A stretch of DNA of 64,000 nt from Escherichia coli (GTDB lineage Bacteria > Pseudomonadota > Gammaproteobacteria > Enterobacterales > Enterobacteriaceae), in the NCBI RefSeq assembly GCF_030013595.1, contig NZ_CP122768.1; one strand, 5' to 3'. Position numbers: made by a program. Below, in pieces: positions 45,001-51,000 of the stretch (position 1 is its first letter; the number at the start of each line of letters is the position of its first letter).

Positions 45001-48000
45001 AGAATTTATTTTCTAAGTCCATTAGTTAACCTCTATGAAAAAATTGGTTTCTTGCATCCTGCATAAGCAATAGAAATTGTGGCTATTCATATTTATGTGT
45101 CATTAATGCTATAGGAGTTTACATTCGACATATCTATGGTTGTGTTCACTAATTTATCTTAGGAATTCAGTGATGTAATCTGAAATAGCCTTATTCAATT
45201 TTGATAAAATAGATTGTTCTCTAACACGTTGAAAAATAACAATTTATAGTGTGTTCTTAACTGTTTTAAGATGTTGATTTAAGAAAACATAAGAGAAGCT
45301 GGTCATAGTAGTTAACTGCACTATAACCAGCAATTTTAACCAAAATATTGTAATGCTTAGCCATTATCTTCTGAATTATCAGTTAAGAGTTCAATATATG
45401 CCTGCGCTTTGCTCTTAACACTTTCATCCTCACAATTGTTAATAATATGATAGAAACATTGCATTGCGTTATCGATATTTTTAGCCCCAATTTGACATTG
45501 ACCCATACGATAAATAACTGAATAGTCATCATACGGTGAGTAATTGTAACTTAGTTTGTAAAGGTCATATGCTTGTTGATATTCCTTTTTTGACTGGCAT
45601 ACTGATGCAAAACCTTTTAGATATTCATGATTTTCGAACGCATAAATGCACAGAAATTTATAATAAATTTCTGCGTCCGTTATATTACCTTTTTCATGGT
45701 AGTCGAATGCATATGCATATATTCTATCAAGTATATCAGGAGTCAATCCATGTAGTAATGCCAGATTTTCTCCTTGTGATAATGCGTGTTTTAGTTGACT
45801 TGCCCATTCATCACTGTTATTGAATATTTCAAGTGTATCTGTGCTCATAATATTCCTCTGTGATGTGTTTCGTGATGCTAAATTATTATTAATTGACTCA
45901 TTATTTTTTTGCATTTATCTTTTTTGAATTATGAGTTTTAAGCTTGCATTGCTTATGGGTATATTGGTTCATTATTAGTAAAAATACTGACCACTATAAA
46001 CCAATAATGTCATTAGTTGTTTTGCTAATATTCACCTTATTAGTTATCTTAATTACGACATTTCATAAATGCCTTAATGTGCATGGCCTAGATTCATATT
46101 ATCAATTTCCATTTTTTCGATGAAAATTAAAAAAGGGATTTTTGCGAAGGGTAGTAAGTCGTCTGGTTTTTTTTCTTTATTATGTCTGGTGACGAGGGGG
46201 GATAGAACGTCGGTACATATAGTAGAGAATTTATTCAGGTCTAGATTATTCTCTATTTTGGCCAGTTTTATGAGTTCATTTGTAGCCATACTCATTAAAT
46301 CATCTGTTATCGGAAATTTATATATGCTCATAGCCGATAATATTGCTTGCTGAATTATTTCTTCAGAAATATCCGCTATCTTTATTGACAAATCATGTGT
46401 TAGATATTTTCCTCCAAGAGATTCTTGTTCAATATAATTTAAACCAGACCTCATCGTAATTTTAACTGGATTCACGTATTTCTCTTCATTTTTCTTATTT
46501 TTGTTCTCCTGATCAGGAACTAATGGTTGCAGTGGTAGGCTATTATTAATATTTCGTGGCTTCATTTTACATTTCTCTCATTTGATTAGAGCAAAATCCG
46601 AATTCGCAGCTTCTGATAATGTCAAATATCACCTTTTCTCATGCTTTATTCTATCAAAAATCGCTCATTTTTACTTTTTTTACCATAATGTTACTTAGTG
46701 GCATCGGCAATTTACATAACTTACATGTTGTTTTTTATATCCTGAAAAAACAGATAGATAGTGTGCACACTCGAAATGATATTGGTAACATAAATAGCTT
46801 TATTCGTGACAAACATCTCAAAAGATTTCCTTTATTATTTTCGAAATTCATTTGATCAAGGTTATCACCTTATGGAGACGTTACGTAGAATGACTATATT
46901 TGTTATCGGCACATTAGGGGTATTAAATTTAGTATTGATGGAAGGTGATTATTGAACAGTAACATCGAGTCACGGTCAAAATGTGAGGTATATAATGGAC
47001 ATTGAGTTTTCGCAGATTCATGAAATGGTCTATATGCATGATATTGTAAATTCGGACTCGAAAAAGAAACCAAGGATTCCGTTAAAAAAATTCCTTAATG
47101 CTGAGAAGGTTCTCACGCAAACAACATCATGGGTACTAAATTCAAGATATGTGAATGTTAATTCTGTCAGTAAAGTCAACGTAAAGAGTAAAGTTAAAAA
47201 CAGTTATATCTCACGATCTGTCAATGATGAGTTTAGTTTAACAGATGATGAAATCAATTCTTTTAAAGAAACGTTAGTCCTTTCCTCTATTGATTCTCTA
47301 AGTAAACTGGTTCTTAATAATCCTCTTTCTGTATTGTTTACATCGACTGTACGAAGGAATAATAATAGAGCTAAGATGAATGTTGAGTTCGACTCATGGA
47401 TTTGCACCAGATGTTGTTGATACATGATATTTTACATTGCAAGGTGATATCTAAAATGAAAGATGTTGATCAAAACTTTGATGCTTTATACTGGCATATA
47501 CTACAAGCATATTTAATTTTATTGTTTTATGATTAACGCGGTTCCATCTTTTTGTTATCTATTTAAGTTTACCTTGCACAATGCATTATTGCTCTGTTAC
47601 CAATACTCAAAATAAAAGCATGCTTACCTTGCTTTAGTATATTATAGCTTACACTTTTTTCTGGAAAGACATAAAAATCAGGAATAAGTTCTGCAAGTCT
47701 ATCATCATCGACTTGATCCATGATCTCAAATTTATTAACTTTCTTTGATGTTAAATGGGCTGTGTCATAGTTTTCAATCCATGTGTATTCAATATTTCGC
47801 CGTATTGACTTACTTTCTCTGTTACCTTGTTGCCAGGTTCCGCTCAACGCAACAGTTCCTGTTTTATTTTTTTGGTTATACATAAAGTCGATGGTAAGAT
47901 TTGCTCGCCCCTTGTCATTAAAAATTACCCAATTTGCAGTGCATGTTTCATTATATATCATTTTTTCTGCAGTATAAGAGTAAACAATGAAGAGAATAAA

Positions 48001-51000
48001 CCCACTGATAAAAACTAAAATAAATAATAAGTTTTTTTTATAATCAATCACGATTAACCTCACGGTAAGACAGGGTTAAACAGCCTGCCACTTCATGTTG
48101 GTTATAGTTTTTATTGCATGCCATAACAATCATCCCTGGTGAGGATTTTGCAAGAGGGAAGTATAACCACGGATATTTTTTACAGTTAATCCCCGAATCC
48201 AGTATCCGTGTCTTATATTTATCGAACTCTTTCAACCCATCAATTGTATCTTCTGTCACATTAAAATGGCAGCCATTAATTTCCGCAACAGTCTTGTAAT
48301 CCTTGAAGAATGGCTTCGGTTGATTATTATTCCATAGCCAATGTGCAGAATATACGCCTATAGCAAATATGCTCAACATAATTAGATAACTTTTTATATG
48401 TTTGAGGATTTTGTTATTGAAATTGTTTGCGCCACCAATGCTCTCTTTGTACCCCGCATTACCTTTTACGGCAGGTGGGGCATTGTGTGTATGTGCGTCT
48501 GTTGAAGAGTTTATTACATGATTTTGTATGTTAATGTCATTATGAATCTTGAATCCTCTTCTCGGCACGGTTGCAATAAGCGAGTGGGTGGTATCACCAA
48601 CAGCGCGAAATCCGCGTCTGATAATGGATATGTTCTGATATAACGTGTTAGTTGGCACACGCATACCTTCTTCTTCCCAGACTCTGGTGAAAAAATCTTG
48701 TTGTGCAACCACATCAGGAAAAGCTTCAAGTAGAAGTGATAAACAACGACTGGCTGGCGTTGTCAGAACGACGTTAAGATCGGCGTTATGTACCGATATT
48801 AATTTTCGGTGCTCAGGCCAGAACTCGATATTATCGTTAATAATCCAGTACATACGTCAATAGACACTAAATCAATCAAAATGGAAATCACATAGTTTGC
48901 TAAGTATATTGGTATTTACGGCATAAATATATATTAATTTTATATTTATCATAATGATTGAAATGAGGCTTTAATGTCGCAACGTAAAACTTTACGTAAA
49001 TTAACATGATTAACATTTATGCCACTATTGTTTGTAAATTCATATTTCGTAATGCTTCTGAATTTTTCGTGTGATGGTTTTAAATACCATGTTGTTTACT
49101 CTTGGGGTTACTGCTTATTTATAAAATACGGGTATTTCAATAGATGCCCGTATAAGCAGAGTATGATTCTGGCAGATTATTGAGTATCAATGTTGGACCG
49201 AATGTGAACGAATAAATAACTCGTTTATTTTACCACCCATTCTCTTTTCGATTCGTTGCTTGTACGCGTAGATGCTACGGATATCCATATCCAGAACTTC
49301 AGCAATCTGATATGGATTATAACCAGAAACCATATATCCCATTATGGTGAATTCCATCTGAGTTAATGTGTTCCCTCTGGTAAATGATAAATAACGACCA
49401 ATAAATAGTTGTCTGATCTTTTCGTTGGCAACATCAAGACCATCATCATTATATATGACAGCAGATATTGCAGAGTTGTGTTTTCGCCAGTAGTTAGCTA
49501 ACGATTGCATATTTCGGTCGCTGACTAAAACAATCCCCATGTCAGTACTTGCAAGATAGTCAATCCAGTCTTTTTCAAGGAATAGACGTAAAAAACTTAC
49601 TGAAAAATCGACAAAAATATATCCGCTTAATCTCGCATTGTGGTTTTTTGTTAAGATACCTTCCACCACACCACGATTAAAATATGAACTTTCTTCGGGC
49701 CACATACAAAAACACGAGTTTGCGCAATACTGCAAACGCGGTGACTCTTCTGGCATTATTTGGCAATGCATTGAGCAACTATTGCATGTAAGACTTTTAT
49801 AACGACTACAAAGCCCCATGTTAAGAACCTCCCTATCCGTATATAATTGCATAATTTCATTGGTTATTGATGATGTCAATACACCATGATTTTGTAATTT
49901 TGCTGGGAAAAATTGCGATTAATCTGTATTTGCTATAATTCTGAGTAAAGCATTTAAAAATGCATTTCTCGTTATTAAATATGATTATGTTTCACTGATT
50001 TAATCTTACCTGGTTGATGGTGGTTCAGATAACTATCTCATGGTATGAGAATATCTATATCGCAAATTGTTTTTGAATGACCAGAAGATATCTTGCGAAT
50101 CTAAGTTATGCATCTTAAATAGTCTTATTTAAGATGTTCAGATCTCTTTGTGTGTTTAACTAACTGATAATACTAGGATATGACGAGAGAAGTGATAGAG
50201 CGGAATTATAACAAATGAACATTATGAAAACTGGAATGGTTCAAAATTGTAGCAATTTTGAACCATTCACAATGGATATTAGCTAAAGAACATTACCGAT
50301 ACGCACAGGATACCCACGATCAGCGTAATCAGATTTCCGATGGAACGCCAGGGTTTAAGCGCCGGGATGAGATACGTTGACAGCGTAGGCATGATGAAAA
50401 GTATCATGGCAATGAGCGGGCCGCTGATCGCGTAAATCATCGAAATCGCGTTCGGGTTAATGCAACAAACAATGAAGGTAATCAGCGATACCAACATAAT
50501 TGATAGTGCGCGGTTAAATGCACGACTTTTCTTTACACCAACCTGCTGTAGTGTTGTTTTGACGACCTCTGTGGCACCTTCAATAACGCCAAAGTACGTA
50601 CCCAGGAATGATTTCGACATCGCAACTACTGCGACAATAATCCCGGAAATTGACAACCATGCTGGGGCGTTCGGCAGCATAGAAAGCGCCGATAAAATGG
50701 TAACCCCTTCTTCTTTAGCCGCTTCAATATACGAAGGTGGAATAGAAAGCAGGCAGCTAAAGACAAAGAACAGTACACTTATGCAGATGATGAGATAAGC
50801 GACTTTCATAATTTTTTTGCATTTATCCATAGCATGTTCGCCATATTTTTCACGTCTGTCTATGGCAAACGTAGAAATAATGGGCGTATGGCTAAAGGCG
50901 AAAACCATCACGGGAATCGATATCCATATCTGGTGAAGGGTATTCTGATTGAACTCTACCTGGGTTGTTAATAGATCAGGTTGCCAACTACCGACCAGGT

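Follow-up and report, generated by a model that had tools for sequence, protein, structure and literature searches.

Three genes at the AT-rich margin of the type III secretion island ETT2 in Escherichia coli raise the question of whether they encode a membrane-bound transcription regulator with a periplasmic partner, in the manner of ToxR/ToxS, and of how many of them belong to it. The genes are yqeH, yqeI and yqeJ, and they were analysed in a stretch of 64,000 nucleotides from the RefSeq assembly GCF_030013595.1 (contig NZ_CP122768.1), which is referred to here as the window. An earlier note, made from the sequence alone, had proposed a ToxR/ToxS-like pair, YqeI-YqeJ, joined with a LuxR regulator, YqeH, in a single regulatory module. 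Our answer is that yqeI-yqeJ very probably encodes a transmembrane transcription regulator of the co-component type, like ToxR/ToxS and VtrA/VtrC, with MarT/FidL and the GrvA/FidL pair of enterohaemorrhagic E. coli (EHEC) as its closest relatives. With the same high confidence, as part of this whole best explanation, yqeH is regarded as a separately transcribed neighbour that is co-inherited with the pair in Escherichia and in Salmonella pathogenicity island 3 (SPI-3), outside the conserved two-gene cassette. The ToxR/ToxS-like nature of YqeI/YqeJ is correct but already published (Kinch et al. 2022; deletion studies in avian pathogenic E. coli, APEC). All three are named K-12 genes, and nothing is added here as a discovery.

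An open reading frame (ORF) scan of the window placed three ORFs within 47569-49879, all on the minus strand, and in genomes sharing 96.6-100% identity with the window across 47400-50100 they carry the RefSeq names yqeJ, yqeI and yqeH; the genes thus lie where the earlier note had put them. Its description of AT-rich DNA beside a type III secretion system was also borne out, with a G+C fraction of 0.30-0.37 from 40000 to 50000 (the island) and of 0.44-0.53 from yqeG outwards. Of 5426 complete E. coli genomes, 4118 contain DNA matching the region at this identity, in every case in the chromosome, and all three ORFs are intact in the window and in 3619 genomes covering at least 80% of the region. 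The presence of the genes in so many genomes, the homologues in many genera and ratios of non-synonymous to synonymous substitution (dN/dS) of 0.03-0.26 together rule out a chance pattern.

The regulator half of the pair was assigned from its DNA-binding domain. The sole Pfam match in YqeI is Trans_reg_C, the winged helix-turn-helix (HTH) of OmpR/ToxR type (Table 1). Among all PDB chains, the top sequence matches were to the DNA-binding domain of Vibrio cholerae ToxR, in three entries (including 8b4b), with E=1.6e-7 for the single sequence and E=7.6e-14 for a 24-sequence family profile; CadC followed far behind ToxR, and response regulators were not significant. A classification of YqeI as an OmpR/PhoB two-component response regulator was considered and rejected: Pfam gave no match to the phospho-receiver domain (Response_reg), and the winged helix is N-terminal and followed by a transmembrane (TM) segment.

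An alignment of 24 YqeI homologues, 39-97% identical to the query, falls into four zones. The winged helix and, at the other end, the C-terminal domain of ~94 residues are conserved; between them lie a linker, which is hypervariable, and then a hydrophobic segment. The hydrophobic segment, at about residues 149-174, shows a median Kyte-Doolittle value of 2.03 and occupies the same position in 24/24 homologues, compared with a median of 1.16 for the second-best window in the family. The 15 positions ahead of the segment contain 79 lysine and arginine residues, compared with 37 following it. Because the position of the segment is conserved and these positive charges are in excess on its N-terminal side, YqeI is predicted to cross the membrane once, with its N-terminus in the cytoplasm. 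In the C-terminal domain, which would be periplasmic, C195, C224, C246 and C258 are invariant across the 24 sequences. The modelled order of secondary structure, beta-beta-alpha-beta-beta-beta, corresponds to the published VtrA/ToxR core minus the last helix (PMC9214523). The Pfam and PDB matches, the family hydropathy and the model all agree with the reading of YqeI as an OmpR-type winged helix, a single TM segment and a periplasmic domain.

YqeJ proved much harder to place by sequence. As a single sequence it gave no meaningful match in Pfam-A or NCBIfam, PDB chains gave none either to the sequence or to its 99-sequence profile, and a word-indexed search returned homologues in Escherichia only. 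A profile search of 1.84 billion cluster representatives recovered 128 sequences at E<=1e-3, nearly all of 150-165 amino acids (aa); truncated YqeJ clusters are also numerous in the protein database. In the 99-sequence alignment, C37 is invariant, and C158 (>=90%), G65, G71, R85 and F126 are nearly so. The AlphaFold2 model built on this alignment, with a predicted local distance difference test (pLDDT) of 94 and a predicted template modelling score (pTM) of 0.80, consists of a helix at residues 2-29 followed by eight strands. Residues 8-26 form the sole hydrophobic segment of the protein, and this segment, together with the modelled TM helix and barrel, bears out the description of YqeJ as a single-TM periplasmic protein.

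When the YqeJ model was compared with 350,542 PDB chains by Foldseek, ranks 1-3 were all ToxS (8alo_B, E=1.2e-3; 8u2f_A/B), with TM-scores of 0.62-0.64. VtrC was placed at ranks 5, 6 and 9 (TM-score 0.65-0.66), and ordinary lipocalins came next. Additionally, the Pfam tag PF27292 'YqeJ_C' is carried by both YqeJ and FidL; the older Pfam FidL_like model matched only 4/99 YqeJ family members, and weakly.

The possibility that the two periplasmic parts bind each other was examined with a fused query, in which YqeI 176-269 was joined through a 40-residue Gly-Ser linker to YqeJ 28-160. Its alignment contained 32 rows paired by locus and 47 single-domain rows, with the partner sequences trimmed. In the resulting AlphaFold2 model, pLDDT was 84-98 in both domains and below 50 in the linker, and pTM, the only measure by which the interface was judged, reached 0.76, which is more than expected of two independently floating domains. 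Co-expressed YqeI and YqeJ periplasmic domains have been reported to form dimeric complexes (Kinch et al., PMC9214523).

All six cysteine columns were retained in 31/32 gene pairs. The exception, in Salmonella enterica subsp. diarizonae (L018), has Tyr at both the C195 and the C224 columns and keeps C246/C258. Because both cysteines were lost together in this pair, the pattern suggests that C195 and C224 form one disulfide and that C246 and C258 form the other. Overall, the ToxR/ToxS-like architecture of the two proteins and of their genes passed independent tests, the winged helix being closest to that of ToxR; the co-fold points the same way, and the literature classifies the pair alike.

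At the junction of the two genes, their frames share 8 nt (48044-48051). The earlier note had described the yqeI stop as overlapping the yqeJ start; this holds for the frames, whereas the yqeJ GTG itself lies 2 nt upstream of the yqeI TGA. The longest possible yqeJ ORF begins at a GTG at 48063. The 8-nt overlap is indicated by the GTG start in RefSeq, the GAGG in front of it and the conservation of this geometry in other genera: 24 related loci offer a start codon that would give the same overlap, and 12 more offer one with an overlap of 1, 4 or 14 nt. Kinch et al. 2022 class YqeI/YqeJ among the few pairs without overlapping frames, which differs from the overlap described here.

The YqeI alignment was also used to scan one genome per species, and 48 loci were obtained. 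A yqeJ homologue was found directly downstream on the same strand in 26 of them, distributed over more than 10 genera, including Escherichia, Citrobacter, Klebsiella (K. oxytoca), Trabulsiella, Kosakonia, Enterobacter, Yokenella, Salmonella, Leclercia, Buttiauxella and others. In more distant loci, from Serratia, Leminorella and Pantoea, the partner is alike in size and has a TM segment as well as two cysteines. Trabulsiella carries two or more paralogous yqeI/yqeJ-like cassettes close together (L007 and L009, about 24-515; L010 and L023 on the same contig, 15 kb apart).

The surroundings of these cassettes were inspected as well. Chaperone-usher fimbrial genes (subunit, PapD-type chaperone and usher) were observed within 5 kb in 10-12 loci, and a different LuxR/GerE regulator, of 191 aa, lies convergent and just downstream of the partner gene in 7 loci. 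Fimbrial or GerE neighbours occur at L005, L006, L008, L010, L014, L018, L026, L030, L031, L033, L035 and L038-L043. The fimbrial neighbours fit the adhesin targets known for MarT, PsaE and MyfE, and they suggest that adhesins are the usual local targets of yqeI/yqeJ-like cassettes.

These results agree with a classification that has been in the literature since 2022. Kinch et al. (PNAS 2022, PMC9214523) described YqeI/YqeJ of K-12 and Sakai as a co-component system, modelled the periplasmic domain of YqeI and called the pair a MarT/FidL orthologue. In the same work YqeJ is lipocalin-like and falls in a disulfide-containing group that is related to FidL by sequence, and the partner proteins are described as too divergent in sequence for HHsearch to connect. 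The co-component classification recurs in a 2023 survey and a 2026 preprint. On the functional side, deletion of yqeI in APEC changed the expression of 587 genes, with flagellar and motility genes including flhDC down, and reduced adhesion, serum survival and colonisation; deletion of yqeH in APEC gave related phenotypes. Since the pair is present in about three quarters of complete E. coli genomes, K-12 included, YqeI/YqeJ is a convenient system for studying a fast-evolving class of virulence sensors.

A mechanism may be proposed from these elements. yqeI and yqeJ would be carried on one mRNA, with the 8-nt overlap coupling their translation; for marT-fidL, co-transcription has been demonstrated. 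Judging from hydropathy and charge bias, both proteins would be anchored in the inner membrane, the N-terminus in the cytoplasm and the C-terminus in the periplasm. There, the alpha/beta domain of YqeI, stapled by disulfides, is predicted to dock on the disulfide-stapled lipocalin-like barrel of YqeJ, in keeping with the complex reported in the literature. By analogy with bile-salt sensing by VtrA/VtrC and ToxRS, the heterodimer could stabilise YqeI, sense a hydrophobic periplasmic ligand, or both. Its state would then control the binding of AT-rich promoters by the membrane-tethered, ToxR-like winged helix. The outputs would include those reported for the APEC deletion mutant, namely flagellar genes including flhDC, type 1 fimbrial genes, adhesion and serum resistance.

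Several observations weigh against this interpretation. The hydrophobic segment of YqeI is borderline in the allele of the window (Kyte-Doolittle 1.59), and the interface in the fused model was assessed through pTM alone. No ToxS or VtrC chain in the PDB was detected at E<=10 by sequence, either with single YqeJ or with its 99-sequence profile, so common ancestry of YqeJ with ToxS/VtrC is argued only from fold and gene arrangement, and the Foldseek E-values are themselves marginal, at about 1e-3. A consensus scan gave no convincing yqeI promoter, and no clear ribosome-binding site was seen before the yqeI ATG. The ToxR-box pattern TNAAA-N5-TNAAA is not enriched in the window (14 matches against 8.8±3.1 expected; 8/100 shuffles reached 14) and is absent from 47000-50400, and therefore no target was inferred. 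The APEC transcriptome could reflect indirect or polar effects. Furthermore, loss of yqeI leaves the growth of K-12 unaffected, and under laboratory conditions the locus is silent.

Selection on the three genes was estimated from dN/dS against two other Escherichia species. Values were 0.14-0.17 for yqeI, 0.13-0.17 for yqeJ and 0.03 for yqeH. Within yqeI, the winged helix gave 0.11 and the periplasmic domain 0.04-0.08. The linker and TM segment gave 0.23-0.76, with 0.23-0.25 against the two other Escherichia species. Between the window strain and K-12, dN/dS of the winged helix was 0. Non-synonymous divergence was 0.17-0.20 for yqeI/yqeJ and 0.025 for yqeH, a difference of about seven times.

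The third gene was characterised separately. Pfam detects GerE in the HTH of YqeH (E=3.8e-5), with an overlapping Terminase_5 match on the same HTH and no other match. Residues 31-202 align with positions 3-179 of the 180 of EcpR (NCBIfam NF047921, E=1.7e-20), at 73.8 bits against an equivalog cut-off of 300, which makes YqeH a relative of EcpR and not EcpR itself. In addition, the precomputed PF27348 EcpR_N tag is present on the N-terminal part of YqeH and of all its homologues. YqeH is accordingly assigned by sequence as an EcpR/MatA-like regulator with a LuxR/GerE HTH. The label LuxR in the earlier note fits the HTH; the rest of the protein is the EcpR-type N-terminal domain. Pfam gave no receiver or autoinducer-binding domain in YqeH, and the candidate roles of LuxR-type quorum-sensing receptor and NarL-FixJ response regulator were rejected in view of the GerE HTH as sole Pfam domain and the EcpR_N-type N-terminus. 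Homologues as low as 38% identical, the SPI-3 one among them, retain the motif C12-x2-C15-x3-C19-x12-C32, and this N-terminal cysteine segment may be a metal- or redox-binding motif. Residues 1-38 (49706-49819), upstream of the part that aligns with EcpR, contain seven cysteines.

The alternatives concern the role of the partner, the extent of the module and whether the locus is functional at all. Regarding the partner, YqeJ could be a chaperone or protease shield for YqeI only, as proposed for ToxS-ToxR and TcpH-TcpP, and no ligand receptor; any signal would then enter through the disulfide state or the abundance of YqeI. The two conserved cysteine pairs in the periplasmic domain of YqeI are compatible with such a role, as are the description of partner proteins in the literature as inhibitors of regulator proteolysis and the requirement of FidL for the MarT phenotype. 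The barrel of YqeJ, however, is under purifying selection throughout (dN/dS 0.08-0.16), and its best fold matches are two partners with reported bile-salt binding, followed by ligand-binding lipocalins. We consider a chaperone-only YqeJ possible, if rather doubtful, and the chaperone and receptor roles are not mutually exclusive. YqeI/YqeJ could, in a further reading, be the environmental input of ETT2, a bile-salt or lipid receptor that counter-silences the H-NS-bound island, for example via the neighbouring HilA-like ygeH, perhaps acting with YqeH and its four conserved cysteines in an ancestral three-gene module shared with SPI-3 (EcpR_N gene-marT-fidL). This would parallel VtrA/VtrC, which act through VtrB on T3SS2, and we hold it to be highly improbable.

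A three-gene operon or module in which YqeH works with YqeI, as the earlier note had grouped them, appears unlikely to us. The genes are indeed adjacent on the same strand without a terminator-like site after yqeH, homologues of all three are linked in SPI-3 at about 40% identity each, the small downstream LuxR/GerE regulator of 7 other loci offers a parallel, and both the yqeH and the yqeI deletion mutants of APEC lose flagella. Against this, a 334-nt gap separates yqeH from yqeI, a promoter-like site and a strong ribosome-binding site of its own precede yqeH, and the SPI-3 homologue of YqeH is on the other strand, beyond misL. Of about 50 loci, 5 have a YqeH-type gene beside the cassette, all of them in Escherichia, Citrobacter sedlakii or Salmonella SPI-3, leaving about 45 of 50 cassette loci without one; membership of yqeH in the conserved cassette was rejected for this reason. 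The roughly seven-fold slower non-synonymous evolution of yqeH suggests that it is under different constraints. Within the earlier note, the inclusion of yqeH is the weaker part. Still less expected is a block in decay, left over from an island acquired by horizontal transfer, silenced and without any regulatory role today in most E. coli, a reading to which we give very little credence. It draws on the widespread attrition of ETT2, with ygeH split by IS2 or interrupted by an internal stop in close relatives, on several neighbouring pseudogenes in BW25113, on an IS3-family insertion in yqeI in one genome, on the many truncated YqeJ clusters in the protein database, on the unaffected growth of K-12 lacking yqeI, and on the silencing noted above, the K-12 yqeG-ygeI block being an H-NS/StpA-silenced domain. 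It is opposed by the intact ORFs in the window and in the 3619 genomes, by the low dN/dS of all three genes and of the winged helix in particular, by the conservation of the cysteines and of the overlapping start across genera, and by the restoration of the APEC deletion phenotypes on complementation, some only partly. As pseudogenes, yqeH, yqeI and yqeJ were rejected on the intact ORFs and dN/dS; the pair is fast-evolving but constrained and no decaying remnant. The co-component regulator yqeI-yqeJ, with yqeH as a neighbour, remains our preferred reading.

The coordinates of the features are collected in Table 1.

Table 1. Features of the yqeH, yqeI and yqeJ genes and their products, with positions in the window.
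Feature	Residues	Position	Strand	Basis and remarks
yqeJ coding sequence		47569..48051	-	160 aa, GTG start; ORF and RefSeq annotation; probable co-component partner, ToxS/VtrC/FidL-like
YqeJ eight-stranded lipocalin-like barrel (model)	35-159	47575..47949	-	Conserved C37 (first strand) and C158 (last strand)
YqeJ N-terminal TM helix (predicted)	8-26	47974..48030	-	After a short K-rich tail; Kyte-Doolittle 2.54
yqeI/yqeJ junction		48044..48061	-	GAGG 48061-48058, 6-nt spacer, GTG start 48051-48049, yqeI TGA 48046-48044
yqeI coding sequence		48044..48853	-	269 aa; ORF and RefSeq annotation of identical DNA; 111 homologues; probable ToxR-type transmembrane transcription regulator
YqeI periplasmic beta-beta-alpha-beta-beta-beta domain (predicted)	176-269	48047..48328	-	Invariant C195, C224, C246, C258
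YqeI single TM segment (predicted)	~155-174	48332..48391	-	Hydropathy of the allele and 24 homologues, K/R bias; preceded by hypervariable linker (~105-150)
YqeI winged HTH, cytoplasmic OmpR/ToxR type	28-102	48548..48772	-	Pfam Trans_reg_C E=2.5e-9
yqeH-yqeI intergenic region		48854..49186	-	334 nt, AT-rich; expected place of the yqeI promoter
yqeH coding sequence		49187..49819	-	210 aa, ATG start; EcpR-type N-terminal domain and C-terminal LuxR/GerE HTH (HTH about 49235-49369)
Promoter-like site TTGACA-17-AATTAT with TG extension		49851..49879	-	Consensus scan, 10/12 matches; ~30 nt upstream of the yqeH start; consensus match only

In front of yqeH, the ATG is preceded by GGGAGG at 49833-49828 and, further upstream, by the promoter-like site. 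Sites of this kind are not in excess in the scan (15 compared with 16.0 expected in shuffled sequence). The TTG at 49879 opens this site and more probably belongs to a -35 box than serves as a start codon. The span of 47569-49879 given in the earlier note thus contains the genes, and its right edge corresponds to the TTG of the longest ORF, not to a likely start. The promoter and terminator scan found no terminator after yqeH or yqeJ. A hairpin with a 16-bp stem and a T-run was observed at 50234-50268 (minus strand), directly after the yqeG stop; it is likely the yqeG terminator and would insulate yqeH from upstream transcription. Rfam, searched at permissive E-values over 45000-51600, gave no RNA family.

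Other genes of the region were also noted. Between yqeK and yqeJ, an ORF of 26 codons at 47456-47536 (plus strand) is annotated as a hypothetical protein in RefSeq genomes and may be the small-protein gene yqeL of PMC12460168. The HilA-like ygeH (43646-45022, 458 aa) is intact in the window; IS2 splits it in a strain with 100% identity across 47400-50100, and in strain DG351-2 it contains an internal stop. Likewise, the ORF at 46074-46565 is intact in the window and frameshifted in BW25113. The attrition of ETT2 regulators varies from strain to strain.

The known systems to which the locus can be compared differ in how closely they resemble it. CadC of E. coli is, like YqeI, a ToxR-like one-component membrane regulator, with weak similarity in the winged helix (5ju7, E=9e-4; NCBIfam, E=5e-4), but it has a much larger, pH-sensing periplasmic domain, and its partner is the permease LysP and not the product of a lipocalin-like partner gene. 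EcpR (MatA), the regulator of the E. coli common pilus, shares the EcpR_N and LuxR/GerE HTH architecture of YqeH; YqeH differs in its extra N-terminal segment with four conserved cysteines and in its score below the equivalog cut-off. VtrA/VtrC of Vibrio parahaemolyticus is a bile-salt receptor that switches on T3SS2. VtrA is without a periplasmic disulfide (PMC9214523), and, of the two pairs, bile-salt binding and control of the secretion system next to it are demonstrated for VtrA/VtrC only. ToxR/ToxS of Vibrio shares the two-gene layout, the topology and periplasmic disulfides, ToxR having the closest winged helix and ToxS the best fold for YqeJ. In contrast, no sequence similarity is detectable between the periplasmic parts, YqeI is without the C-terminal helix of the ToxR/VtrA periplasmic domain (PMC9214523), and YqeJ is predicted to have a barrel-closing disulfide of its own.

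The closest relatives are found among enterobacterial cassettes. GrvA/FidL of EHEC is a paralogous cassette with the same domain plan, in the same disulfide-containing, sequence-related subfamily (Kinch et al., PMC9214523); it occupies another chromosomal site and activates adherence dependent on the locus of enterocyte effacement. MarT/FidL of Salmonella SPI-3 is the nearest by sequence, YqeI being 43% identical to MarT (E=6.5e-59) and YqeJ 41.6% identical to FidL over 154 aa (E=7e-42). FidL carries the same PF27292 tag, the gene order is the same, the island is likewise AT-rich, and a nearby EcpR_N/LuxR-HTH gene (205 aa) encodes a protein 40% identical to YqeH (E=5e-57). In the SPI-3 locus (L051, 6001-11026), marT-fidL is followed by misL and then by the EcpR_N gene. 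The two systems differ in that MarT has a known adjacent target, the autotransporter adhesin misL, compared with no known direct target for YqeI, and in that the YqeH homologue of SPI-3 lies on the opposite strand, beyond misL. Loss of misL in place in E. coli was considered and rejected, as tblastn found no misL remnant between yqeJ and ygeF. As YqeI, YqeJ and YqeH are each ~40-43% identical to their SPI-3 counterparts, the three genes in E. coli can be read as a rearranged SPI-3 block without misL. By their sequences, conserved cysteines included, YqeI and YqeJ are placed within the MarT/FidL-GrvA/FidL-YqeI/YqeJ subfamily (PF27292).

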